From contig SFLA01000003.1 in the NCBI GenBank assembly GCA_004553575.1, positions 1-62,595 on the forward strand: a DNA stretch of 62,595 bases, written 5' to 3'. The notes beneath the pieces are model-generated. The model did no database searches, had not been told where the DNA came from, and worked only from the letters and a program-made list of their open reading frames with translations. The stretch is from Clostridiales bacterium. GTDB taxonomy: Bacteria > Bacillota > Clostridia > Oscillospirales > CAG-382. Below are positions 6,667 to 23,542 of the stretch, one piece after another (the first letter of the stretch is position 1; every line of letters starts with the position of its first letter). The translations under genes and the position numbers were made by a program.

Positions 6667-6695
6667 TTGACAATTACACCGTTAGATGGTAATAT
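6667..6695 (+). promoter_or_regulatory. sigma-A type promoter of the FkbH-ACP-MBOAT-DHHW operon
   Basis: TTGACA, 17 nt spacer, TAATAT, located 43 nt upstream of the ATG at 6738 (RBS GGGGGTG). Confidence 0.5.
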
Positions 6696-6737
6696 TAGAA
6701 ATGTATTAAGCAGCATGCTACAGGGGGTGTTTAAAGC

Positions 6738-8468
6738 ATGGAACTGCCCGGCTTTGTCGAGCTTAAGCGCAATCTCAAAAAGGATATGTCGTCTTTTCCG
6801 GCAGTCACCGCGGCGGTCATAGGAGATTGTGCCACCCAGCATTTTTCCGCGGCACTTGCGGGATGGGGGTACACTGTCGGTATAAGGTACGATATCTTCG
6901 ATTCCGACTATGACCAGATCGACGCACAGACCATGGATCCGTCTTCGGAGCTGTATTCACACGCGCCGCAGAATGTTATTATCGTCAACTGCACACAGCG
7001 CCTGTATGAGGACTTCTGCGCTTTTCCGCCCGAGCGCCGCGCCGAATTTGCCGATACCAAGGCGGCGGCAATCGAATCCGTGTGGAAACGCATCTGCGAT
7101 TCGGTGCGAACCCGCATAATTCAGCTCGATTTCCCTGAGTGGGACGACCGGGTCTTCGGAGATTACGCCTCGCGCACACCGGAATCCTTTATATATCAGC
7201 TTCGCCGTCTTAACGGTTTGATTTCGGACCGCGCCAAGGAATATAAGAATCTTTTTATTTCCGATATCTGCGGTATCCAGAGCCGTATCGGCGAGCAGGC
7301 GCTGCGCGACGACAAGATGTACTGCGTCGGCAAGCTCCCGTTCCGTACGGACGCTCTTCCGCTTATCGCAAAGCATATCACCGATATAATACTTGCCGCG
7401 TCCGGCAGGTTCAAGAAGTGCGCAGTGCTCGATCTTGATAACACGCTTTGGGGCGGCGTTATCGGCGACGACGGAATGGACGGCATACAGATCGGAGAGC
7501 TCGGTACGGGACATGCCTTTACCGAATTCCAGCGCTGGCTGAAGGAGCTTAAAAACCGCGGCATCATTCTCTGCGTATGCTCCAAAAACAACGATTCCAC
7601 CGCGCGCGAGCCGTTTTTGAATCATCCCGATATGGTTCTGCGGCTGGAGGATATATCCGTATTTGTTGCGAACTGGCAGGACAAGGCGACAAATATACTT
7701 TCGATACGCGATACCCTTAATATCGGGCTTGACAGCATGGTATTTATCGACGATAATCCCTTTGAGCGGGAGGCGGTTCGGAGTCTTGTTCCGGGCATAA
7801 CCGTCCCGGACCTTCCCGAAAGCCCCGAGGACTATGTTTCCTTCCTGCGCGGAGAAGACCTGTTCGGTACGGCGTCCTTCTCTTCGGAGGACAGAGCGCG
7901 GACCGATCAGTACCGGGCAGAGGCGGAGCGAGTCGGGCTTAGGAGCCGCTGTGCCGATTACGGCGAATATCTGCGTTCGCTTGAGATGGTCGCCGAGGCA
8001 AAGCCTTTCGACAGCTTCAGCTTTCCGCGTATATCGCAGCTCACCCAGCGTTCCAACCAGTTTAATCTGCGGACGGTTCGCTATTCCGAGCAGGATATAG
8101 CCGACCTTGCCGCAGACCCGGGCTGTATAACCTTGTATTTCAAACTGCGCGACAGGTTCGGGGACCACGGGCTTATAAGCGTCGTCGTAATGAAGAAGCG
8201 CGGAAAAGAGCTTTTTGTAGATACCTGGCTTATGTCCTGCCGCGTGCTGAAACGCGGAATGGAGGAGTTCATAGTTAACAAAATGATTTCCGTCGCACGC
8301 GAGGCGGGATTCGGGCGCGTTATCGGCGAGTATGTGCCGACCGCCAAGAATTCCATGGTTGCGGATATATATCCGCGCCTCGGATTCACACCTGCGGGCG
8401 ATAATCTGTATTCCGCCGATACGGCGTCTTTTACACCTAACCAGACTTATATTACGGAGGAAAAATAA
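6738..8468 (+). CDS. HAD-IIIC / FkbH-like protein with C-terminal GNAT-like domain (576 aa)
   Basis: HAD motif I LDLDNTLWGG. CSKNN and FIDDNP motifs are present. The C-terminal domain carries the conserved WLMSCRVLKRGME block (Cys501). Confidence 0.8.
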   Translation: MELPGFVELKRNLKKDMSSFPAVTAAVIGDCATQHFSAALAGWGYTVGIRYDIFDSDYDQIDAQTMDPSSELYSHAPQNVIIVNCTQRLYEDFCAFPPERRAEFADTKAAAIESVWKRICDSVRTRIIQLDFPEWDDRVFGDYASRTPESFIYQLRRLNGLISDRAKEYKNLFISDICGIQSRIGEQALRDDKMYCVGKLPFRTDALPLIAKHITDIILAASGRFKKCAVLDLDNTLWGGVIGDDGMDGIQIGELGTGHAFTEFQRWLKELKNRGIILCVCSKNNDSTAREPFLNHPDMVLRLEDISVFVANWQDKATNILSIRDTLNIGLDSMVFIDDNPFEREAVRSLVPGITVPDLPESPEDYVSFLRGEDLFGTASFSSEDRARTDQYRAEAERVGLRSRCADYGEYLRSLEMVAEAKPFDSFSFPRISQLTQRSNQFNLRTVRYSEQDIADLAADPGCITLYFKLRDRFGDHGLISVVVMKKRGKELFVDTWLMSCRVLKRGMEEFIVNKMISVAREAGFGRVIGEYVPTAKNSMVADIYPRLGFTPAGDNLYSADTASFTPNQTYITEEK

Positions 8469-8471
8469 CCG

Positions 8472-8714
8472 ATGAACAGCGAGATAATGGAACGACTGAA
8501 CCGTGTTTTCAGAGACGTTTTCGATGACCGACGTCTTACCGTAACCGCCGCTACGACCGCAAACGATATAGAGGATTGGGATTCGCTTACCCATATCACT
8601 CTCATATCTGCCGTCGAAGACGAGTTCGGTATGAAATTCACCATGCGCGAAGTCGTGGGAATGAAGAATGTCGGTGAAATGGCTTCGATAGTCGAGTCCC
8701 GCCGCAGGAGGTAA
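8472..8714 (+). CDS. acyl carrier protein (80 aa)
   Basis: Phosphopantetheine-attachment motif DWDSLTHI (Ser38). Size and helical pattern fit an ACP/DltC-like carrier. It starts 3 nt after the upstream stop. Confidence 0.8.
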   Translation: MNSEIMERLNRVFRDVFDDRRLTVTAATTANDIEDWDSLTHITLISAVEDEFGMKFTMREVVGMKNVGEMASIVESRRRR

Positions 8715-8723
8715 ATCCGGGTC

Positions 8724-10217
8724 ATGGTTTTTTCAAGCCTGTTCTTCGTATATGTATTCATGCCGGTACTGCTGCTGCTTTATTATGCAATAAAGCGCAA
8801 CAGCTGGCGCAGAGGCGTTCTGCTTCTGTTTTCACTGCTGTTTTATGCGTGGGGCGAGCCGGTTTATATCCTGCTCATGCTGTTCTCCGCGCAGATGAAT
8901 TATCTGTTCGGCCTTGCCGTCGGCTTCTCCGAAAAGCCTGCGGCGCGCAAGACTGCGGTAGCGTTAGGGGTGATTGTAAATATCGCCCTGCTCGGGGTGT
9001 TCAAATATGCCGGTTTCGCGGTCGAGACTTTCAACTCGGTCACCGGTCTGGCAATACCGGTACCCGCAATATCGCTGCCGCTCGGAATCAGCTTTTATAC
9101 CTTCCAGGCCATGACGTATGTCATTGACGTGTACCGCGGCAACTGTGCTCCGCAGAAGTCGTTTTCCCGTCTTCTGCTGTATATTTCGCTGTTCCCGCAG
9201 CTCGTCGCAGGGCCTATCGTCCGCTACACCGATATAGAGGACAGCCTCGAGAGCCGCCGCGTCAGCGCCGCTCAGTTCAACAACGGGCTTTACCGCTTTG
9301 CGATAGGACTCGGCAAGAAGGTGATTTTTGCAAACACCTGCGGGCTTGCGGCGGAAAACCTCTTTGCCTTCAATGCGACACACGGCGCGACAGTGCTCGG
9401 GAACTGGGGCGGTATACTGTTCTATGCGTTCCAGATATATTTCGATTTCTCCGGGTATTCCGATATGGCTATAGGACTCGGCCATATGTTCGGCTTCACG
9501 TTCCCCGAGAACTTCGATTACCCGTATATCTCGCGCTCCGTGTCCGAGTATTGGCGGAGATGGCATATAACCCTGAGCAGTTGGTTCCGCGATTACCTGT
9601 TTTATCCCGTGCTTCGCTCCAAGCTATGTACTTCGATAACCCGTTCGCTCCGGAAATCCGGTCATAAGGCGGCGTCGCGCAACGTGCCCACCATTATCGC
9701 TCTGCTTATAGTCTGGTTCTCTACGGGTCTTTGGCACGGCGCGAGCTGGAACTACGTAATATGGGGACTGTACTACGGTATTCTGCTCATTCTCGAAGAA
9801 TTCGTGTTCGGGAAAATCCAGAAGCGTATACCGTCGGCAGTGTCGGCAACCGCAGGCAGGGTATTGTTCGTATTTATCACGCTGTTCGGATTTGCCATCT
9901 TTTATAACGAGACCGATTTACTCAGGAATCTTGGTTATCTCTTGGGAGTCGGAACCGTCGGCTTCTCCGATGTGTACACCGTGTCGATGCTTTACGAGAA
10001 CGGACTGCTGCTCATTGCCGCACTCGTCTGCGTGACGCCGCTCGGACACACGCTGGCATCCGGCTTCGGCAGTATGCTTGAATCGCGCTGCGGCTCTTCC
10101 GCGGCTTACAATATCAGCCGTGTGGCAAAAACGGTCGCGATACTTGCGCTTTTTGCGATTTGCACCGTCCGTATGGTCGGCGATTCGTATAATCCGTTTA
10201 TATACTTCAGATTCTGA
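8724..10217 (+). CDS. MBOAT family membrane-bound O-acyltransferase (AlgI/DltB-like, 497 aa)
   Basis: Multi-pass membrane protein. Contains WRRWHITLSSWFRDYLFYP and GLWHGASW (conserved catalytic His region). Confidence 0.9.
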   Translation: MVFSSLFFVYVFMPVLLLLYYAIKRNSWRRGVLLLFSLLFYAWGEPVYILLMLFSAQMNYLFGLAVGFSEKPAARKTAVALGVIVNIALLGVFKYAGFAVETFNSVTGLAIPVPAISLPLGISFYTFQAMTYVIDVYRGNCAPQKSFSRLLLYISLFPQLVAGPIVRYTDIEDSLESRRVSAAQFNNGLYRFAIGLGKKVIFANTCGLAAENLFAFNATHGATVLGNWGGILFYAFQIYFDFSGYSDMAIGLGHMFGFTFPENFDYPYISRSVSEYWRRWHITLSSWFRDYLFYPVLRSKLCTSITRSLRKSGHKAASRNVPTIIALLIVWFSTGLWHGASWNYVIWGLYYGILLILEEFVFGKIQKRIPSAVSATAGRVLFVFITLFGFAIFYNETDLLRNLGYLLGVGTVGFSDVYTVSMLYENGLLLIAALVCVTPLGHTLASGFGSMLESRCGSSAAYNISRVAKTVAILALFAICTVRMVGDSYNPFIYFRF

Positions 10218-10234
10218 CGGAGGGGGAGTGTCTT

Positions 10235-11854
10235 ATGAAAACGCCCAAGGGTAACAAATTCATTGACGAGCTTATGCTGCTTATCGTGGCAATAGCTGTC
10301 GGCGCAGTGGCGGTGCTCAACCTTTGCCAGACAGACCGCCCGACGTATTCCGAAATCGAGAACCGCGATCTCGCGACAATGCCCGAGCTTACCGGTGAAA
10401 GCCTGCTCGACGGAAGCTTTTTTTCCGGCACCTCGGCTTTCGTGTCCGATACATTTTTCGCACGGGATCAGCTTTCGTCTTTTTCAAAGGTGCTGGACAC
10501 TTATAAGAGCCTTTCGCTCATTTATAAACGAAGCGGGATTACCGTCATTATCGATCCCAATCCAAGCAAGCCCGATGAGGACGAAAGCGACATTACGAGC
10601 CTTCCTCCGCTCCCGAGCGAACCGGAGGAATCCGATGTTTCAGATGTTTCCGGCGAGAGTTCGGAACCCGTAATCAACACCGTACCGGTAAAGCTTTCGG
10701 CGAAGAACGCCTCGGTGTCCGTCGGAGCCACCTATCTTATTACCGCTACCGTAGGAGATAATTTCCGCGGTCTTACCTGGACCTGCAGCAGTACGGCCTA
10801 TTTCAAGCTGACCGATAACGGCGACGGCACGGCCACCGTGCGAGGAACCGCCGCCGGCAGCGCCGATGTCACCGCAACCGTCACCGATGCCGACGGAAAC
10901 GAACACACGGCGTCCTGCCGCGTCACCGTAACCAAACCCTTCTCGGAAGAAAGCGGCGGTGGCAAGGAGGTTGCGGACTTCCTGCCCAACGGACTGTTCA
11001 TTTATGACGGCGCGGCTTATTCGCAGTCGTATTTCTCGTCGACATACGCGCCGAAGTTCGCGGAGCTGTACAGCTATTACGCAAAGCTGTTCCCGTCGGC
11101 TACCGTCAGTGTGGTAACGGCGCCGCTTTCGACAATCATAATTCTCGATCCCGAAGTGAGCTCAAAGATTTCGGATCAGGGTAAGATTCTCGATAAGCTC
11201 GAGAATGCGTCGTCCCTGTACGATGACGTGAACTTCGTAAACCTGAAGAATATTTATCTCGACCATGCGTCCGAGTACCTGTTCTTCAAGAGCGATCATC
11301 ACTGGACGGACCGCGGTGCGTATTATGCGTATTACGCCTTTGCCGATTCGGTCGGGCTTAACCCGGTAAAGATAGAGGACTTCGATGTAAAGGTGCTGAA
11401 CACCTCGTATATCGGCTCGATGTATAAGTACACCGGCGACGAGAGGGTTAAGTATTTCTACGACACCGTCGAGGCATATCTTCCCGGTAAGACATGCACC
11501 ATGACCATCTACGATGCAAACGGATCGGTTTACAATTACGACAGCTGCATACGCACATCATCCTCCGGATACACCGCATTTCTTGCCGGAGACCATGCGT
11601 ACACCGTTATCAATGTACCGGAGAATCCTCAGAACAAGAACGTACTCGTTATCAAAGATTCCTTCGGAAACGCCTTCGTGCCTTTCCTTACCGAGCATTA
11701 CGGGAATATTATCGTAATCGATCCGCGATATGTTACCTTCAACGTGTATGAGCAGTTCAAGGATTACGGCTTTACCGATATCGTATTCATGATGAATACA
11801 ACCTCGGCAAACAGCAAGGCATGGTACAATTATATGGCTGATATGGTCAAATGA
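10235..11854 (+). CDS. DHHW family protein (AlgJ/AlgX/SGNH-like extracytoplasmic acyltransferase) with Big_2 domain (539 aa)
   Basis: N-terminal TM anchor, acidic linker and a Big_2-like segment (VSVGATYLITATV...ASCRVTV). The eponymous motif FFKSDHHWTDRGAYYAY has DHHW at 11294-11305. Confidence 0.85.
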   Translation: MKTPKGNKFIDELMLLIVAIAVGAVAVLNLCQTDRPTYSEIENRDLATMPELTGESLLDGSFFSGTSAFVSDTFFARDQLSSFSKVLDTYKSLSLIYKRSGITVIIDPNPSKPDEDESDITSLPPLPSEPEESDVSDVSGESSEPVINTVPVKLSAKNASVSVGATYLITATVGDNFRGLTWTCSSTAYFKLTDNGDGTATVRGTAAGSADVTATVTDADGNEHTASCRVTVTKPFSEESGGGKEVADFLPNGLFIYDGAAYSQSYFSSTYAPKFAELYSYYAKLFPSATVSVVTAPLSTIIILDPEVSSKISDQGKILDKLENASSLYDDVNFVNLKNIYLDHASEYLFFKSDHHWTDRGAYYAYYAFADSVGLNPVKIEDFDVKVLNTSYIGSMYKYTGDERVKYFYDTVEAYLPGKTCTMTIYDANGSVYNYDSCIRTSSSGYTAFLAGDHAYTVINVPENPQNKNVLVIKDSFGNAFVPFLTEHYGNIIVIDPRYVTFNVYEQFKDYGFTDIVFMMNTTSANSKAWYNYMADMVK

Positions 11855-11872
11855 CCTGCCGGTAAAACACGA

Positions 11873-11913
11873 CCCGGGAGACGCCGTTTCAGGCGTACTC
11901 CCGGGCCTTTCTT
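11873..11913 (+). terminator. rho-independent terminator of the 6738-11854 operon
   Basis: cccgggagacgcc / ggcgtactcccggg stem followed by cctttctt. Confidence 0.6.
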
Positions 11914-14975: not shown

Positions 14976-15818
14976 TCAGATTATAGCGTCTGCGATTATC
15001 GCCGCGGCGCCTATCGTTATGCAGTATACCGAAAACACCGCAAATCCGCGGTTTTTCGCCAGGTATTGAAGCAGTTTTATTGCAAAGAAGCCGGATACGG
15101 CTGCGACCGCCGCTCCGGTCAGAAATGCCGGAGCCGTTCCTGCGGGCAGTCCCGACGCGAAAAATTCCGGCAGTTCGAGCACGCAGGACCCGAGAATCGC
15201 GGGGATGGACATAAGAAATGACAGCCTTACCGCGTCTTCTCTTTTGAACCCCGCAAGCAGTCCGCCGGTTATGGTTATTCCGGATCTCGATATTCCGGGC
15301 AGCAGACCTATCACCTGCGTCAGACCGGGTATAAGCGCCTTCGGTATGCGCGATCCTTCAAGAATTAACGCGCCGCGTGACAGCCGGTCGGAAATCCAGA
15401 GCACCGCCCCGTTGATTATTAGAAGCACGCCGATAACCCAGCTTACGGACGAAATGAATCCTACGCTTTCGTCCGCTCCCAAAAGCGCGGCAGGCACCAG
15501 CGGAAGCGTTGCGACAACAAGCATAACGAACAGTTTTTCGCCGAAGTCCAGCCCCTGTTTTATCCGACCGGTGAAAAGCTTTGCCGCAAGGGTAAAAAAA
15601 CCTTTTATCAGCTTAAGGATATCACTGCGGTATACGATGCAGACGGCCAGCAAAGTCGCGAGATGGAGCAGTACGTTGAAGGCAAGATAGGTATCGGAAT
15701 CTATATTCTCCGCCCCGAATAAATTCTGAGCGAGCGCCAGATGACCGCTCGATGAGATCGGCAGAAACTCCGCTATCCCTTGAATAAGCCCGTAAACCGC
15801 TGCTTCGATTATGCCCAT
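14976..15818 (-). CDS. uppP: undecaprenyl-diphosphate phosphatase
   Basis: BacA family motifs (EFLPISSSGHL, PGISRSG). I chose the start at MGIIEAAV, which is preceded by GGGGGA. The track ORF begins 27 nt further upstream. Confidence 0.9.
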   Translation of the reverse strand: MGIIEAAVYGLIQGIAEFLPISSSGHLALAQNLFGAENIDSDTYLAFNVLLHLATLLAVCIVYRSDILKLIKGFFTLAAKLFTGRIKQGLDFGEKLFVMLVVATLPLVPAALLGADESVGFISSVSWVIGVLLIINGAVLWISDRLSRGALILEGSRIPKALIPGLTQVIGLLPGISRSGITITGGLLAGFKREDAVRLSFLMSIPAILGSCVLELPEFFASGLPAGTAPAFLTGAAVAAVSGFFAIKLLQYLAKNRGFAVFSVYCITIGAAAIIADAII

Positions 15819-15952
15819 GTTCAAAATCCCCCTGCGAATATACATATTGTATTATAGAATAATATAATGCAAAAGTCAACAATCATATACCGCACTAACA
15901 AAACAATTGACAAACCGCCCGCCCCTGTATTATAATAAACAGACAAGAGGAG

Positions 15953-16894
15953 ATGAGACTTGTGTCCACCGCTTTCAGGAACTTTTTAATAGTATTTATT
16001 ATCGGTCTGTTGGGCTTCGGACTGCTTGCATGGAAGGTAGTCGTCCCGTATATAGATACCGAGCTTCTCGGAGATATCAGCGACGGCGGTCCCGTTCACG
16101 AGAGCGCCGACCCGTCCGAGAGCGATGTATCCGGCGATGTGTCGCAGGATGTCCGCAGGCGTACCGTTAATATCGCGCTTATCGGCAAAGCCAGCGAGGA
16201 TTATATCGCCGGTATTTTCTTCATACATATAGACGAAGAGAAGGGCGTGTATCTTACCGTCAATGTCCCTCATGACACAGTAGTGAACAACGCCGGGCAC
16301 AGTGTGGTGCTGTATTCGTATCTGTTCGGCGTGGGAGCGGCGGAGATGATGCAGACCGTGCCGTATCTGGTCGGTTATCCGGTCGATTATTATGCGGTGT
16401 TCGATTACAACGGTATAGAAGCGATACTCAAGCGCATGGGAAACGTTAAAATGACCCTTAGCACAATGGTAAGAGTTCTTAATACCGCCGAATTTGCCGA
16501 CGAGATACAGGATTATCTCGACAGGGGCGAGGAGGTTCCCGACGCATATTACGAGGTTTTCGAGCCGGGGACGGTAACCCTTAACAAAGATAATTTATAT
16601 AAGTTCTGGAATTACGAGCCGGGCGGCAACGCAGGTGACTTTACGGTAAAGGACGAGGTTTGCGCCGCCGTGTTCAGATCACTAACATCCTGCTCCTCGC
16701 TCGGAGCCGACGGAAACGGTTTTCTCGAGCTTATGGCATACGCCGCCGAGGCGACATTGGGCAGCGAGGCGTTTACCGAATACGGAGATATAATGTTTGC
16801 CAACGGGTATCTTCTGAAATCCGTTCCGGTCGCCTATGATCAGGGTTATACCTCAATGGTAAAGAAAATCCGCGAGGCTGTATCCGACTACTGA
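15953..16894 (+). CDS. membrane-anchored LytR-CpsA-Psr (LCP)-like protein, divergent (313 aa)
   Basis: N-terminal TM helix. The block NIALIGK...FFIHIDEEKGVYLTVNVPHDTVV resembles the LCP core, but the usual RSD/PRD residues are changed. A GTG at 15962 with AGGAG upstream is an alternative start. Confidence 0.45.
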   Translation: MRLVSTAFRNFLIVFIIGLLGFGLLAWKVVVPYIDTELLGDISDGGPVHESADPSESDVSGDVSQDVRRRTVNIALIGKASEDYIAGIFFIHIDEEKGVYLTVNVPHDTVVNNAGHSVVLYSYLFGVGAAEMMQTVPYLVGYPVDYYAVFDYNGIEAILKRMGNVKMTLSTMVRVLNTAEFADEIQDYLDRGEEVPDAYYEVFEPGTVTLNKDNLYKFWNYEPGGNAGDFTVKDEVCAAVFRSLTSCSSLGADGNGFLELMAYAAEATLGSEAFTEYGDIMFANGYLLKSVPVAYDQGYTSMVKKIREAVSDY

Positions 16895-17954: not shown

Positions 17955-18492
17955 AGCCGCGCTTATCGGCGTCGCGCTGTCAATGGACGCCGCCGCCGTT
18001 TCGGTCGCAAACGGCCTTGTCTGCAAAGGAACGAAAAAAAACGTTCTTATACTTGACCCTCTGTTGTTCGGGCTTTTTCAGGGAATAATGCCTCTTATCG
18101 GTTTTTATGCCGTTTCGCTGCTTCCCGTAAGTCTCGATAAATATTCCGGCATTATAATGTTTACGGTGTTTATGGCGCTGGGCGTCAAGATGCTGCTCGA
18201 TTTTTTCTTCGGCAACGGTACCGAGAAGGGGGACAAACCGCTCAGCGTAGGATTATTGTTGGTGCAGGCTGTTTCCACCTCGCTGGACGCGTTGTTTGTC
18301 GGAGCCGCTCTCGCGGCGGATGCCGGCACGGATATATGGCTTGCCGCGGCGATTATCGCCGCAGTCACCGCAGCGGTTTCGGCTTTGTGCCTGCTGGCGG
18401 GTAAGAAGTCCGGCGCACTGCTGAAAGATCGCGCCGGGTTGGTGGGGGGAGTGCTGATGCTGTTTATAGCCGTCGGCTCTCTGTTTGACTGA
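17941..18492 (+). CDS. mntP: manganese efflux pump MntP family (183 aa)
   Basis: Six-TM protein with duplicated SMDA/SLDA motifs (LSMDAAAVS, STSLDALFVG). Overlaps the upstream gene by 14 nt. Confidence 0.85.
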   Translation: MNLAEAALIGVALSMDAAAVSVANGLVCKGTKKNVLILDPLLFGLFQGIMPLIGFYAVSLLPVSLDKYSGIIMFTVFMALGVKMLLDFFFGNGTEKGDKPLSVGLLLVQAVSTSLDALFVGAALAADAGTDIWLAAAIIAAVTAAVSALCLLAGKKSGALLKDRAGLVGGVLMLFIAVGSLFD

Positions 18493-18508
18493 TATATACG
18501 GAATAAAA

Positions 18509-21500
18509 ATGTTAAAGCGTCTTTTATCTGTTGCGTTAATAACCGTCATGCTGTTCTCCGCATTAGCGGAGGGGGGCGGGACGGGTGCGGAGTTTTTTTC
18601 CGCTCTCGCACGGGATAGCGGCGCTTTTTCCCGTTATATTGCCGCGTTTTCCGACGGAACAGATCCGGAATCTCTGCTTTCGGGGGTAAAGCACCGCCTT
18701 ATATCTCCCGAAAGCGAGCGGGTGTATCTCGTCGAAACGGACGATATTTCCGCCTTATCCGCATACTGCTCGGGAATTGAGCCGGAGCTTGTTCGCGGCA
18801 CTCTGGCATCGGACCCGCTCGAGAAGGACCGGTGGGAAACCGCATACGCCGGGCTCGATACCGCCCGCGAGCTGTATTCCGGCAGCGCTTCGGTTGTAGT
18901 TGCGGTGCTCGATACGGGCGTCGAGCGCAATCACGAGGATCTTGCCGGCGCAAATATTCTGGAAGGCTTTGACGCTACCGCGGGGGTTGCCGGCGTGTAC
19001 GGGGATTCTACAGGTCACGGCACCGCCGTTATCGGCATTATCGCCGCGTCGGTAGGGAACGGAGTGGGAGTAGCCGGAATATGCGCCGATGTATCCGTAT
19101 ATCCGGTAAAGGTCGCGTCGGGGAGCGGAAGCATTTATTCGTCCGATCTGATAGCGGGAATATATGCCGCCGCCGATTACGGTGCGGATATAATAAACAT
19201 CTCTCTCGGCGGATATTCGTATTCCGTAGCCGAGCAAAACGCAATAGATTACGCGGTATCAAAGGGCTGCATCATTATTGCCGCCGCCGGAAACGACGGA
19301 GCGGATTCGGTTCTTGCGGGACGGTATTTTTATCCGGCTTCATACGAAGGTGTTATTTCGGTTGCGTCGGTAGGCCCCGACGGAAGCCCCTGCAGGTTTT
19401 CGCAGTACAACGATTCGGTCGATCTCGCCGCACCCGGATGCGATATAACCGTATGCGAATACAAAAACGGGGTTTCGTCGTACGGGACGGATTCCGGAAC
19501 CAGCTATTCCGCCGCCATTGTAAGCGGAATAGCCGCGCTCGCCTGCGGAATTTCAGGAGGACTCACATGTGACGAGTTCTTATGGCTCTGCATTTCGGAG
19601 CTCGGCGCCGAACACAACCGTTATACCGGTTACGGATCCGTAAGCGCTCCGGAAATACTGGTCGCCGCCTCCTCGCCCGTGGTATGCGGTGCAGCCGACG
19701 GCGGGACATATCCCGCTCCGCTTACCGTTGCCTTTTCACGCGGATCCGGATATCTCGACGGGTCTCCGTTCGCTTCGGGCGGTACGGTGACCGCAGTCGG
19801 TAAGCATACCCTTACCGTTATTGACGGCGACGATACGGTTTCGGTTTCCTTTACCGTTACCGGCGATATCCCGACATATACCGTCGGAACCGACAGTATC
19901 GTATTCACCTCCGGGACAGCCTTTCTGGACGGTATGCCGTATACGTCGGGCGATTATATTTATCCCGGAGTCCACTTTATAACGCTGACCTCCGAAAGCG
20001 GGCTTTCCGTATCGGATACCGTTTCGGTCGGAGGCAATCCGGTTTCGATTGTGGGAATAACCGACGGAGGGGTATATGACGGGGCGGTCACCCTTACCGT
20101 ATACGGCGACGGGTACTGCGTGCTTGACGGAACTTCGTTTACCGGGAGCACGGTAGTCTGGAAAAACGGATCGCATACTGCCGTGCTGTGCGACCCCTCC
20201 GGCGCCGAGATAAAGACGGTTACCTTTACCGTTAATTCCTCGGCGGAGCTGCTTTCCGGCTTCGGAGGCGTATCCGCCGTTTACCACGATACCGAAAACG
20301 GTTATATCGCGGTCACTGCTGCAGGAGTAAACGGAGTCGGTATATATTCCGATTCGGATCCGTCCTTCCGCATACGTTTTATAACCACACCGTCCGCCGT
20401 CACGGGATTCGGGTCGGACGGCACATACCTGTATTTCCTGATGTCCGGTTCTGCCTGCGCCGTACGGCGTTCCGACGCCTCTGGCTCCGCAGCTCCCGAG
20501 CTTATAACGGAGGTGTCCTACACCCCGGAGTATACCTTTTCCGGCGGAGCCGTGTATTCGGGCGGCGAAAAGCTTATCGATACCGGGCTCGGTGAATGTA
20601 TATGTGTTTCCGACGGTATGCTGTATACGACCCGGGCAGTAATAGACATGTCCGACGGGAGGGTAGCCGCCCTTTTCGGAACCGGCGTCGTTTCCGTTTC
20701 AGGCTGCTTCGCCGCGGTTTCCGGCGGAGGTCTGGTGCGGTTCTCGTCTCTGTACGATTTCGCGTCCGCTCCCTCGGACGGTATATTTGAGTCTGCGGCT
20801 GCGGAAAACGAGTATCGCTTTTCCGCACGGCTTACCGCCGCGGTGTCCGATTCTGCGTATGATCCCGTTACCGGCAGGGTGTTTCTGCTGTCCGATTCCG
20901 GCACGCTGTACGCGACCGATAAAAGCTTTATCTCCGAAACCGCGGTGCCGCTGCTGTATGTGCCGATAGCGGTAGCCTGCGGAGAGGGTAAAGCGGCGGT
21001 GTTCTTTGAATCCGGTTATTGCATTATCGACTGTATCACCCTTGCGGTCACATATCATACAGGTACCGCCGCTCCCGAAAAGGCGGTGGTCACCTCCTCG
21101 GGCGCGGCGTATATATCGGGCGGAAGCGTGTATTTTGCCGTCCCGGGCTCCGTTGTGTCGTATCCGGTGTCCGCACGGGGGATATGCACCGACGGCGAAA
21201 GGGTTTTCGTGTGCAATCAGTCGGGAACGGGGATATACGGCTCCGACGGAAGCTATATCGGAAGCATCGCCACCGTTGATTCCGCCGATATATTTACTGA
21301 CGGCACCTATCTGTGTGCGGGCGACTGTGTGTATCTTATCTCCGACGGAAGCGTGACCTGCCGTATCCCGTATACCGTTTACGGAATGACCTGCGGTCTT
21401 GTTTTCACCGACGGCGGTGTGTTCGCGTGCTCCGACGGCAGTACTGTGTCCGGATATGTTTCCGACGGAGTTTTCGCGGGAGGATATTGCCTTTCGGCAG

Positions 21501-23542
21501 ACGGCGGATACGTATCCGTAACCGGCTCGTCACATGCCGGCACCGTTCCGACAGTCGTCGGAGCAGACGGAGTTTACGATGTATCAACCTTCGTTTCATC
21601 GGATAAAGGCGTGCTTTTTATCGACGGTATGCGGTTTCCCGGCGGAGAATATTCCGGCGGAGGCAGCCATACTCTGCTTGCAGTAATGCCGTTCGGTGCC
21701 GTTTATTCCTATTCGTTTTCGGTTATTCCCGTGCTCACGGGTATAACCGTTTCCGGCGGCGACCGTAAGCTGCATGTCGGCGACGAGATATATATAAAGC
21801 TCGAGTATCTGCCTTTCGGGGCGTCAGCCGTTCCCGCGTCGTATTCCGCTTCGGGCTCCGCCGTTACCGTGTCGCCGTCGGGGCTTGTGTGCGCTGTGGC
21901 GGAGGGCGTTTCTACGGTTACCGTCTCCTCAGGCGGTTTTACCGCTTCGGTCACATATACGGTAACCACTGCCGAGCTGGCGTTTTCCGATGCTTCTTTT
22001 GCCGCAGATAAGCTTACAGGCACAGTAACCGTTCCGTCCGGAACCGCGGTATCCGCACTCGAAGCGGCGGCGCTTACCGGCGGCGCAAGGTTTGGAGCAG
22101 TCGATTCTGACGGAGGACGCCTCGCCCCGCATGCTTATGTCTCGACCGGCGACCGCGCCGTGCTTTACTCCACTGCAGATTCCGAAATAGCATCGCTTAC
22201 CGTTATCGTTAAGGGCGACCTTGACTGTGACGGCTTTGTCACCGCTTCCGATTACCGTCTGCTTTCCGATGTCCTTAAGGGTAATATCACCGACCGCAGT
22301 ATACTGCTTGCAGCCGACTGCGACGGCAACGGCAGGACGGACGATTCCGATTATCCCGCGCTCGAATCGCTTATACTCGGTTTCGGTGTAATCCCTCCGA
22401 TGAACGATGAATACTGCATAAGCGTATCGACGTCGGCGAATGTATATGTCGGAGATACGCTTGCGGTGGTATTATACAGCGAGAATTCGTACGATATGGA
22501 TTCAGCTTCGGTCGCGCTTTCCTACGACCCGGAGCAGCTTGAACTGATATCGGTATCCGGCATATCTTATTCGGTGCTCTGGACGGATGCGGACGGAGAA
22601 CTCGTAATATCCGCCTTCGACCCGGACGGAAATGCCGCGGGCAGAAAGATCAGATCTTTCGCCAAGGTTGTTTTCCGCGTAAGAGAAACGGTTGAACAGG
22701 GCGATACGGTGGAAATAACACCATTTGCCGGGTATATAACCGGGAGCAGCGGAATTTACGGCGCACGCGTTTGCGGCTCGTCCTCGTATGCGTCGGTCAG
22801 AAGCGCGGAATCCTTTGTAATCTGCATAAATAACGCAGAGTATTTTATCTTTAATCCGGCAATACACAGTTATAACGTAACCGTGCCGTATACCGCCGTA
22901 GCGCTCGATATCGAATTCGATTACCCTTACGGGGGAAGCGTTACCTGCAGCGATACCGATATCCCCGATACCGATTCGCTTACCGTTACGGTTACCTATG
23001 TTTCGCCCGAGGGTGTTACCGATGTATACCGTATACACGTAATCCGTGCAGCCGAGCCGGCGGGCGACAGTGAATCGCGCATCGGGTCGCTTACGGCGAG
23101 CGTCGGATGTCTTAATCCGGACTTCACCCCCGAGAGGTTAACCTACACCCTCAGCCTCGCATGGGACGACCCCGACCCCGAATTCTTCGCATCTGCGGTG
23201 AGCGGATATGCCGAAATCACTGCGGATATTCCGATCTCCTTCCCGGTCGGCACCGGTATCGTTACATTCACCTGTACCGCTCAGGACGGCACGGTCACCG
23301 TTTATACCGTTAAGGTAATACGTGCTCCCGCCCCGGATCCGTCTGCGGAAGATTCCGGCTCCGAAAGCAGCGAGGACCTGTCCGTCCGGAACGGGTGGAT
23401 AATACCGGCAGCGGTTTTGTCAGCATTTATTGCCGTCGCGGCGGCAGTTGTTATAATTATTCTCAAACGCCGAAAGGAAAAACAAGATGTCAAAGAAAAT
23501 CACTACGAAAAACGAGATAATGAACGCCCGGCGCAAGGCTGA
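18509..23542 (+). CDS. cell-surface S8 (subtilisin-like) serine protease with beta-propeller-like region, Big_2, dockerin, cohesin, two cadherin-like domains and C-terminal TM anchor (about 1677 aa)
   Basis: Catalytic triad blocks VAVLDTGV, HGTAVIG and GTSYSAAIVSG. Dockerin loops are DLDCDGFVTASD and DCDGNGRTDDSD (about 22211-22385). A cohesin-like segment spans about 22400-22790. The C-terminal TM is followed by KRRKEK. I chose the start at MLKRLL (18509), after the mntP stop. Confidence 0.85.
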   Translation: MLKRLLSVALITVMLFSALAEGGGTGAEFFSALARDSGAFSRYIAAFSDGTDPESLLSGVKHRLISPESERVYLVETDDISALSAYCSGIEPELVRGTLASDPLEKDRWETAYAGLDTARELYSGSASVVVAVLDTGVERNHEDLAGANILEGFDATAGVAGVYGDSTGHGTAVIGIIAASVGNGVGVAGICADVSVYPVKVASGSGSIYSSDLIAGIYAAADYGADIINISLGGYSYSVAEQNAIDYAVSKGCIIIAAAGNDGADSVLAGRYFYPASYEGVISVASVGPDGSPCRFSQYNDSVDLAAPGCDITVCEYKNGVSSYGTDSGTSYSAAIVSGIAALACGISGGLTCDEFLWLCISELGAEHNRYTGYGSVSAPEILVAASSPVVCGAADGGTYPAPLTVAFSRGSGYLDGSPFASGGTVTAVGKHTLTVIDGDDTVSVSFTVTGDIPTYTVGTDSIVFTSGTAFLDGMPYTSGDYIYPGVHFITLTSESGLSVSDTVSVGGNPVSIVGITDGGVYDGAVTLTVYGDGYCVLDGTSFTGSTVVWKNGSHTAVLCDPSGAEIKTVTFTVNSSAELLSGFGGVSAVYHDTENGYIAVTAAGVNGVGIYSDSDPSFRIRFITTPSAVTGFGSDGTYLYFLMSGSACAVRRSDASGSAAPELITEVSYTPEYTFSGGAVYSGGEKLIDTGLGECICVSDGMLYTTRAVIDMSDGRVAALFGTGVVSVSGCFAAVSGGGLVRFSSLYDFASAPSDGIFESAAAENEYRFSARLTAAVSDSAYDPVTGRVFLLSDSGTLYATDKSFISETAVPLLYVPIAVACGEGKAAVFFESGYCIIDCITLAVTYHTGTAAPEKAVVTSSGAAYISGGSVYFAVPGSVVSYPVSARGICTDGERVFVCNQSGTGIYGSDGSYIGSIATVDSADIFTDGTYLCAGDCVYLISDGSVTCRIPYTVYGMTCGLVFTDGGVFACSDGSTVSGYVSDGVFAGGYCLSADGGYVSVTGSSHAGTVPTVVGADGVYDVSTFVSSDKGVLFIDGMRFPGGEYSGGGSHTLLAVMPFGAVYSYSFSVIPVLTGITVSGGDRKLHVGDEIYIKLEYLPFGASAVPASYSASGSAVTVSPSGLVCAVAEGVSTVTVSSGGFTASVTYTVTTAELAFSDASFAADKLTGTVTVPSGTAVSALEAAALTGGARFGAVDSDGGRLAPHAYVSTGDRAVLYSTADSEIASLTVIVKGDLDCDGFVTASDYRLLSDVLKGNITDRSILLAADCDGNGRTDDSDYPALESLILGFGVIPPMNDEYCISVSTSANVYVGDTLAVVLYSENSYDMDSASVALSYDPEQLELISVSGISYSVLWTDADGELVISAFDPDGNAAGRKIRSFAKVVFRVRETVEQGDTVEITPFAGYITGSSGIYGARVCGSSSYASVRSAESFVICINNAEYFIFNPAIHSYNVTVPYTAVALDIEFDYPYGGSVTCSDTDIPDTDSLTVTVTYVSPEGVTDVYRIHVIRAAEPAGDSESRIGSLTASVGCLNPDFTPERLTYTLSLAWDDPDPEFFASAVSGYAEITADIPISFPVGTGIVTFTCTAQDGTVTVYTVKVIRAPAPDPSAEDSGSESSEDLSVRNGWIIPAAVLSAFIAVAAAVVIIILKRRKEKQDVKENHYEKRDNERPAQG

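Follow-up and report, generated by a model that had tools for sequence, protein, structure and literature searches.

The window considered here is a 62,595-nt stretch of DNA from a gut Clostridiales bacterium (Oscillospirales, CAG-382; assembly GCA_004553575.1, contig SFLA01000003.1, positions 1 to 62,595), and the system under study is a set of four co-oriented genes on its + strand (6738-11854) that encode, in order, an FkbH-type loader, an acyl carrier protein (ACP), a membrane acyltransferase of the MBOAT family, and a membrane-anchored DHHW/SGNH-like transferase. The same uncharacterised gene set recurs in more than 100 genomes from several phyla. Known MBOAT-SGNH pairs act on peptidoglycan, alginate, cellulose, teichoic acids, and secondary wall polymers (PMC12148441; PMC7710045), and a 2025 mechanistic paper describes the non-Dlt pathways of this kind as operating without a carrier protein (PMC12148441). 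A full-text literature search, with subscription-only papers outside its reach, found no paper on an operon combining an FkbH-type loader, an ACP, an MBOAT, and an SGNH-type protein, in keeping with the original prediction made from the letters of this DNA, which knew of no characterised system of such composition.

Operon anatomy

The four genes are separated by intergenic gaps of only 3, 9, and 17 nt, exactly as first read from the list of open reading frames (ORFs), with gene 2 starting 3 nt downstream of gene 1. Shine-Dalgarno sites precede all four, of the GGAGG type for genes 2-4 and GGGGGTG for gene 1, and the ribosome-binding sites of genes 2 and 3 lie within the 3' end of the preceding gene. 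The promoter originally proposed upstream of gene 1 (6667..6695, +) is borne out by a promoter scan as a sigma-70-like site with 10/12 matches, consisting of TTGACA, a 17-nt spacer, and a TG-extended TAATAT; because the scan of the region returned 11 such sites against 5.8 expected, the call takes its weight from its location in the 175 nt lying between gene 1 and the divergent ribF. Downstream of gene 4 lies an intrinsic-terminator-like element (11873..11913, +), also anticipated in the original prediction, in which a 13-bp hairpin (11873-11905; -28.9 kcal/mol, z = -4.4, with 0/200 shuffles equally stable) is followed by the T-rich tail CCTTTCTTAT. Although a consensus terminator scan made no call at this position, the folding energy and the reading of the sequence both back the element. 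By its anatomy (spacing, Shine-Dalgarno sites, promoter, and hairpin), the cluster is confirmed as a single transcription unit.

The loader and the carrier protein

Gene 1 (6738..8468, +) encodes a 576-aa protein comprising an FkbH_N domain (aa 26-218), an HAD-IIIC domain (aa 227-350), and a GNAT-fold domain (approximately aa 405-560). The profile matches are strong for FkbH_N (199 bits) and HAD-IIIC (70.9 bits), and the FkbH model TIGR01686 is matched at 290 bits (cutoff 146.65) over model positions 3-320 of 323, that is, end to end. The HAD motif D232-x-D234-x-T236 lies within LDLDNTLWGG, and the candidate acyl-carrying cysteine, Cys501, lies within MSCRV (codon 8238-8240); D232, D234, T236, and C501 are each kept in at least 97% of 76 homologues with 40-69% identity. 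The first 383 residues match BF1531 of Bacteroides fragilis (PDB 3SLR; phmmer E = 6e-113), with 46% identity over 380 aligned columns in a Foldseek comparison. In an AlphaFold2 (AF2) model with a predicted local distance difference test (pLDDT) score of 86.6, an alpha/beta domain at the N-terminus is followed by an MDP-1-like HAD domain and then by a GNAT fold at the C-terminus, for which the top Foldseek matches are RimI and SpeG; as modelled, this fold would suit the binding of a pantetheine arm. Residues 227-555 are 29% identical to the HAD-IIIC protein encoded in the zwittermicin cluster of Bacillus thuringiensis plasmid pBMB431, which aligns at both motifs, with DLDCT at the HAD site and LMSCRV opposite Cys501. 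On these sequence features, gene 1 qualifies as a putative FkbH-type glyceryl-ACP loader (TIGR01686). A 545-aa antisense ORF (6957-8594, -) overlaps almost all of gene 1 and was rejected as most likely a high-GC artefact, being devoid of support of its own where the + strand family matches are strong.

Gene 2 (8472..8714, +) encodes an 80-aa carrier protein whose phosphopantetheine-site serine, Ser38 (codon 8583-8585), lies within WDSLTH. It matches the PP-binding family at 24.7 bits, other ACP models being sub-threshold, and Asp37-Ser38-Leu39 is kept in at least 97% of 73 homologues, as part of a conserved W-D-S38-L-x-H motif. The description of genes 1 and 2 in the original prediction, as an HAD-IIIC/FkbH-like protein with a GNAT-like C-terminus and Cys501 and as a carrier protein with a DSL site at Ser38, thus holds, and the two residues on whose conservation it had depended are both conserved.

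The MBOAT and the DHHW transferase

Gene 3 (8724..10217, +) encodes a 497-aa protein that matches the Pfam MBOAT family at 79 bits and contains the WHITLS, WFRDY, and GLWHGA motifs of the histidine region from which it had first been recognised, with His281 (codon 9564-9566) and His338 (codon 9735-9737) conserved. Its closest solved relative is DltB (6BUG/8JEM, E = 2e-31); against the DltB equivalog model TIGR04091 it scores 175.7 bits, below the cutoff of 375. The C-terminus ends in FIYFRF (10197..10214, +), an instance of the FxYxxF motif with the tyrosine at position 494, and F492, Y494, and F497 are kept in at least 97% of homologues. The corresponding C-terminus of gonococcal PatA is FIYANF. 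FxYxxF has been named the "acyl shuttle" motif, and PatA auto-acetylates on its tyrosine (PMC12148441).

Gene 4 (10235..11854, +) encodes a 539-aa protein with a transmembrane helix (aa 8-31), an ENR motif (aa 42-44), a disordered acidic and proline-rich linker (aa 89-148), an Ig-like domain (aa 152-233), and a catalytic domain (aa 250-539) carrying D354-H-H-W357, K474-D-S476 (KDSF), and D496-P-R498-Y. It matches Pfam DHHW at 160 bits, and the DHHW, KDSF, and DPRY motifs are invariant among its homologues. Sequence matches in the PDB are 4NZK (EUBSIR_00411 of Eubacterium siraeum) and PatB1 of Bacillus cereus; the AF2 catalytic domain superimposes on 4NZK with a Foldseek TM-score of 0.82 and on PatB1 (5V8E/5V8D) with 0.73-0.78, and the Ig-like domain also finds matches. 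The membrane-anchored DHHW protein of the original prediction is therefore upheld by the 160-bit match, but the Big_2 domain assigned to it reaches only 17.3 bits, under the cutoff, although the model places an 8-strand Ig-like domain at residues 152-233 and many homologues carry PF02368.

The donor-side loop of the MBOAT

The most telling sign, on sequence comparison, that the ACP may feed the MBOAT is a loop on the cytoplasmic side of gene 3. The DltC docking site on DltB is the cytoplasmic helix HC (M302, V305, I306, M309, K312, R317; PMC11035591), and the segment of gene 3 that aligns with this helix, located between the two conserved histidines, is a basic cytoplasmic stretch (aa 291-320, YLFYPVLRSKLCTSITRSLRKSGHKAASRN; 9594..9683, +) that stands in place of a PLGGNR loop. 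The window loop reads YPVLRSKLCTSITRSLRKSGHKAASRN; it exceeds the PLGGNR-type loop by approximately 20 residues and carries a net charge of about +7. At the same position, gonococcal PatA has YIPLGGSKKG and the B. cereus MBOAT encoded beside a DHHW gene has YIPLGGNR. The DltB of S. aureus reads CIYMRSLFYMSRKKLLKSQF, without PLGG, and that of S. thermophilus likewise lacks the PLGGNR loop, while the ACP-linked MBOATs of Bacteroidota have DYVFMPLNIRFRD, resembling the DFVFMRLVIVLMRN of DltB. PLGGNR is typical of AlgI-type enzymes generally.

With loop type scored from alignment columns, PLGG(N/S)R is absent in 88 of the 89 MBOATs encoded next to an ACP, the exception (L097) keeping PLGGNR, and four relatives of the window MBOAT that lack a carrier retain the loop. 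Counting the controls, a PLGG loop is present in 1/93 carrier-linked as against 6/8 carrier-less MBOATs (Fisher p = 1.5e-7, uncorrected for shared ancestry). When database homologues of the window MBOAT were classified by loop type and the contexts of three of them then looked up blind, the loop had in 3/3 cases correctly foretold whether a loader and an ACP are present: P0184, which is 62% identical to the window MBOAT and has the PLGGNR-type loop, belongs to a bare MBOAT-DHHW pair, and P0200 and P0202, which are 47% identical and have the basic-type loop, lie within full four-gene operons.

Distribution and gene neighbourhood

Species-representative genomes were scanned with gene 1 and BF1531 as queries, giving 160 loci that encode a homologue of gene 1. 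In 85 of them the flanks are full (6 kb or more to either side), and here the 6-kb neighbourhood includes an ACP in 84 and a full-length MBOAT in 76. The ACP and MBOAT genes are directly adjacent in 89 loci, mostly 0-50 nt apart or overlapping. The loci occur in Oscillospiraceae, Lachnospiraceae, Christensenellaceae, many Bacteroidota, Alphaproteobacteria, Acidobacteriota, Armatimonadota, and a metagenome-assembled genome (MAG) of Sphaerochaetaceae. The gene 3' of the MBOAT was identified in 80 loci and is nearly always membrane-anchored and SGNH-like by Pfam match or catalytic motifs; the families represented are GDSL_2, AlgX, DUF459/PatB-like, DUF1574-like, and DHHW, a few singletons being unrelated genes. 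The largest partner group, with 41 loci, is a protein of approximately 300 aa with GSSR...DLGHLN motifs. DHHW partners are found in only 15 clustered loci, all of them Oscillospiraceae relatives of the window, and in the Clostridia relatives P0200 and P0202. The conserved core of the system is a loader, an ACP, an MBOAT, and a partner of the SGNH clan, of which the DHHW type is not a fixed component and occurs only in a Clostridia subset of the sampled loci. Of the four-gene co-occurrence that had been proposed as a check, the loader, ACP, and MBOAT are accordingly neighbours across phyla, but the DHHW gene is lineage-specific.

In a neighbour-joining tree, the MBOATs group by type of SGNH partner, and the window MBOAT-DHHW pair is nested among stand-alone pairs. 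A single ancient lineage of ACP-specific MBOATs was considered and rejected, since ACP linkage is patchy in this tree. Two ORFs of 78 and 71 aa upstream of a carrier-less Faecousia MBOAT were considered as a hidden ACP and likewise rejected, neither having a DSL site. These sequence relationships are most simply read as the acquisition, by an O-acetyltransferase pair like PatA1/PatB1, of a loader-ACP module together with a new cytoplasmic loop, so that the donor module looks like an add-on to a pair of O-acetyltransferase type.

Some loci depart from the four-gene order. In L084 (6498-14487; MAG contig JAGATP010000034.1), the order is an MBOAT of 525 aa, two genes of approximately 320 aa, loader, ACP, an MBOAT of 517 aa, and a 321-aa gene. 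A single loader and a single ACP appear to serve two export modules here, and both MBOATs are of the basic-loop type. On the pSymB-type plasmid CP140944.1 of Sinorhizobium meliloti (L178:4192-10077), the block consists of a VOC gene, an MBOAT, a 409-aa protein, an ACP, and a loader, lies approximately 4-8 kb upstream of the rkpR/kpsF capsule export genes, and is carried by approximately 40 S. meliloti records. The 409-aa partner has no Pfam match and is annotated as a "TonB-dependent receptor" without support from family searches; with its GGSTT and DPGH motifs and N-terminal transmembrane segment, it looks SGNH-like. In several of 12 Bacteroidota loci examined, the cassette sits among glycosyltransferase, Wzx-type flippase, and NusG/UpxY-type genes.

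Related genes are also present on 56-kb mobilizable plasmids of Clostridium perfringens (L181:1558-5769), where a nucleotidyltransferase, a VOC protein, an ACP, an HAD-IIIC/FkbH-like protein, and a 328-aa hypothetical protein are encoded; the feature list shows no MBOAT, in a gene table that is incomplete. In seven loci (L139, L125, L129, L138, L143, L023, and L040), operons typical of one phylum are on contigs binned under another, examples being a Bacteroidota-type cassette in "Methanomethylophilaceae archaeon" and Firmicutes bins and Clostridia-type operons under Muribaculaceae and Mucispirillum; these could be binning errors or cases of horizontal transfer.

Tailoring genes and other acyltransferases

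Genes for thioester-tailoring enzymes lie beside the loader and ACP in 61 of the 160 loci (for example, L093:11956-12387 and L144:11756-12899). A VOC gene is present in 33 loci, a MaoC-type dehydratase with a FabG-like SDR in 21, and a dehydratase alone in 7; the sole NCBIfam match of the VOC protein is methylmalonyl-CoA epimerase. Enzymes of this sort work on acyl groups bound to a carrier, and they fit what would be expected if the ACP holds a 2,3-dihydroxy C3 acyl group that is handed onward. A 2,3-dihydroxypropanoyl thioester would become lactoyl on dehydration and then reduction, and epimerisation requires a chiral C2, so both fit a glyceryl start; the tailoring genes thus suggest that the acyl group is exported in lactoyl or epimerised form in some loci. 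A DH-KR-FkbH loading logic has been proposed for lactate starter units, and the variants with a dehydratase and a reductase recall it.

In loci that lack an MBOAT, the cassette is followed by other acyltransferases within polysaccharide loci. One (L114:13520-18480) has three AT3-family genes with Wzy and GT1, and another (L101:12329-17141) has an aminoglycoside-N-acetyltransferase-like gene with GT4, Bac_transf (a priming transferase), and Polysacc_synt_2. The loader-ACP pair may therefore be a donor module that feeds several types of transferase.

Relationship to known acylation systems

The window system shares with Dlt a cytoplasmic loader, a small phosphopantetheinyl carrier, an MBOAT that would take the acyl group from the carrier, and a finishing enzyme of the SGNH clan outside; gene 3 also resembles DltB in having no PLGGNR loop and in the basic segment it carries where DltC docks on DltB. 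The differences lie in the loader, which is an FkbH-type HAD/GNAT protein and not an adenylating ligase (no AMP-binding gene of the DltA type is found in the operon or its flanks), and in the predicted acyl group, a hydroxy acid as opposed to D-alanine. The operon also lacks the DltX microprotein, FxYxxF being fused to the MBOAT's C-terminal end, its outer enzyme is a DHHW protein and not DltD, and gene 3 falls short of the DltB equivalog (175.7 vs 375).

The likeness to PatA1/PatB1 of B. cereus is found in genes 3 and 4, where an MBOAT with a C-terminal FxYxxF is followed by a membrane-anchored DHHW protein. PatB1, a proven O-acetyltransferase of the secondary cell wall polysaccharide (PMC9487903), has its ENR, DHHW, KDSF, and DxRY motifs and its fold in common with gene 4, and the relatives of the window pair with 46-62% identity are two-gene units of this kind. 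PatA1/PatB1 and the related O-acetyltransferase pairs PatA/PatB, AlgI/AlgJ, and CcsH/CcsI, in contrast, have no carrier and use acyl-CoA (PMC12148441), whereas the window operon adds a loader and an ACP; PatA-type MBOATs also keep the PLGG(N/S)R loop that is replaced in the window MBOAT.

Genes 1 and 2 recall the FkbH/ACP cassettes of secondary metabolism (FkbH-FkbJ, ZmaN-ZmaD, and the tetronate FkbH-like protein with its ACP), in which an enzyme with DxDxT and MSCRV is encoded beside a discrete ACP (PMC7489565). The window system differs in having no polyketide synthase (PKS), non-ribosomal peptide synthetase (NRPS), or oxidising FkbI/FkbK-type genes, and in a loader with an N-terminal FkbH_N domain that is absent from the short FkbH and ZmaN. 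Because a membrane acyltransferase is the predicted consumer, the expected product is a decorated envelope polymer and not a secondary metabolite. Two structures of close relatives are available, BF1531 (3SLR) for gene 1 and EUBSIR_00411 (4NZK) for the catalytic domain of gene 4; both were deposited without a function, and no paper linking either to an operon or pathway was found in the literature searched.

A proposed mechanism and its alternatives

Taken together, the four genes probably constitute one operon for the carrier-protein-dependent acylation of an extracytoplasmic polymer, in which the loader uses a C3 donor and a glyceryl-type ester is exported. As judged from family membership, the loader would draw on a phosphorylated C3 compound as acyl donor, for which 1,3-bisphosphoglycerate is the likeliest candidate, and form a thioester on Cys501; its HAD domain would remove the phosphate, and the glyceryl group would pass to the ACP, onto the phosphopantetheine arm at Ser38. 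Comparison with DltB suggests that the loaded ACP would dock on the MBOAT's basic segment (aa 291-320), at the position equivalent to the DltC-docking helix, after which the His281/His338 site would move the acyl group to Tyr494 of the enzyme's own FIYFRF on the outer face. The DHHW enzyme, by homology to PatB1, would then take the acyl group onto Ser476 and esterify a hydroxyl of a cell-wall or surface glycan; we infer both the acyl group and the target polymer. By analogy, the best reading is of a Dlt-like donor side joined to a PatA/PatB-like outer side, the outer half resembling PatA/PatB and not DltB/DltX because the MBOAT carries its own C-terminal FxYxxF. The combination first put forward, of Dlt carrier logic with an FkbH-type loader and a DHHW transferase, thereby gains support from synteny, the loop, and conservation, except that DHHW is not fixed and that the outer half is not of the DltB/DltX kind.

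Several observations weigh against this proposal. MBOAT-DHHW relatives with 46-62% identity have no neighbouring loader or ACP (P0184, P0191, P0210, and P0226), and because these pairs stand alone, the MBOAT clade is not intrinsically carrier-dependent. The loop is an imperfect marker, since L097 is ACP-adjacent yet keeps PLGGNR, and its statistics include no correction for shared ancestry. P0194 and P0196 (contexts L170 and L176) are MBOAT-DHHW pairs with a basic loop, and no loader or ACP was found within 5-6 kb of either; their carrier may be encoded elsewhere or have been lost recently, or they may be further instances of the marker's imperfection. Since the loader shares only 29% identity with a bona fide FkbH-type enzyme, its substrate could differ from that assumed. 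No polysaccharide genes lie directly beside the window operon that would indicate the acceptor, and glyceroyl esters have, to our knowledge, not been reported from the wall polymers of this group of bacteria.

That same 29% identity to the zwittermicin-cluster homologue, together with the extra FkbH_N domain and the abundance of acyl phosphates in fermenting anaerobes, leaves some room for a carrier-dependent system in which the acyl group is not glyceryl, for example acetyl derived from acetyl phosphate or a retained 3-phosphoglyceryl. We consider this unlikely, given that the HAD DxDxT motif, pointless for acetyl phosphate, is kept in at least 97% of homologues, that the FkbH model is matched end to end (3-320/323), and that the dehydratase and reductase or epimerase genes of 61/160 loci suit a beta-hydroxy acyl group with a chiral C2 and not acetyl. 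A more radical departure would make genes 3 and 4 an ordinary acetyl-CoA-dependent pair of the PatA1/PatB1 type, with genes 1 and 2 co-transcribed for another purpose such as a small metabolite or lipid. The proven O-acetyltransferase activity of PatB1 and the stand-alone, two-gene nature of the closest out-of-clade relatives (46-62% identity) speak for it, but it is rendered decidedly improbable by the linkage of loader, ACP, and MBOAT in 76 of the 85 full-flank loci, across phyla and with many MBOAT clades and SGNH partners, by the absence of PKS, NRPS, and lipid-synthesis genes near the pair in the window or its relatives, and by the loss from the window MBOAT of the PLGGNR loop that stand-alone relatives and PatA keep.

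The acceptor could also be something other than a wall glycopolymer, such as peptidoglycan, a lipoteichoic-acid-like glycolipid, the glycan of an S-layer or surface protein, or an exopolysaccharide, which would be mostly a refinement of the glyceryl-export proposal and no contradiction of it. The window operon has no adjacent glycan-synthesis genes, MBOAT-SGNH pairs act on diverse polymers (PMC12148441; PMC7710045), and nothing in the Ig-like domain of gene 4 points to a particular acceptor; nevertheless, PatB1, the nearest characterised enzyme, acts on a secondary cell wall polysaccharide, and the Bacteroidota and S. meliloti copies are in or near capsule or O-antigen-type loci, so that only a small probability is assigned to these other acceptors.

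Genomic surroundings in the window

The operon is flanked upstream by melibiase, DUF4434, CotH, and ribF genes and downstream by a small lipoprotein-like gene, FtsK, BacA, and an LCP ligase. The last two, a BacA undecaprenyl-diphosphatase (14976-15845, -) and a LytR-CpsA-Psr ligase (15953-16894, +), lie 3-4 kb downstream of the operon, past FtsK, and offer weak contextual support for wall-glycopolymer metabolism that may be coincidence. Farther on, an ORF of 1685 aa (18485-23542, +) corresponds to a Peptidase_S8-family protein in a near-identical MAG contig and is unrelated to the operon.

Significance

Acylation of the envelope by MBOAT-SGNH systems shapes resistance to lysozyme and antimicrobial peptides, S-layer anchoring, and immune recognition. 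Dlt is currently treated as the sole carrier-protein-dependent case (PMC12148441). It is conceivable, at slightly less than even chances, that the loci described here represent a second such class, spanning phyla and placing C3 hydroxy-acid esters derived from glycolysis on surface glycans (glyceroyl in the four-gene form, lactoyl or epimerised where tailoring genes are present), with the choice between acyl-CoA and acyl-ACP donors set by the MBOAT loop (PLGGNR or basic helix) and swapped repeatedly in evolution. The loop could then allow the donor type to be predicted from sequence alone. The genetic tractability of S. meliloti and the availability of crystal structures for two of the four protein families (3SLR and 4NZK) make the system approachable. 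If the proposal is true, abundant commensals would carry unrecognised glycan modifications, glyceroyl or lactoyl esters, through a class that is widespread among gut Clostridia and Bacteroidota and also occurs in S. meliloti, and the decoration of their envelopes would be tied directly to glycolytic flux.

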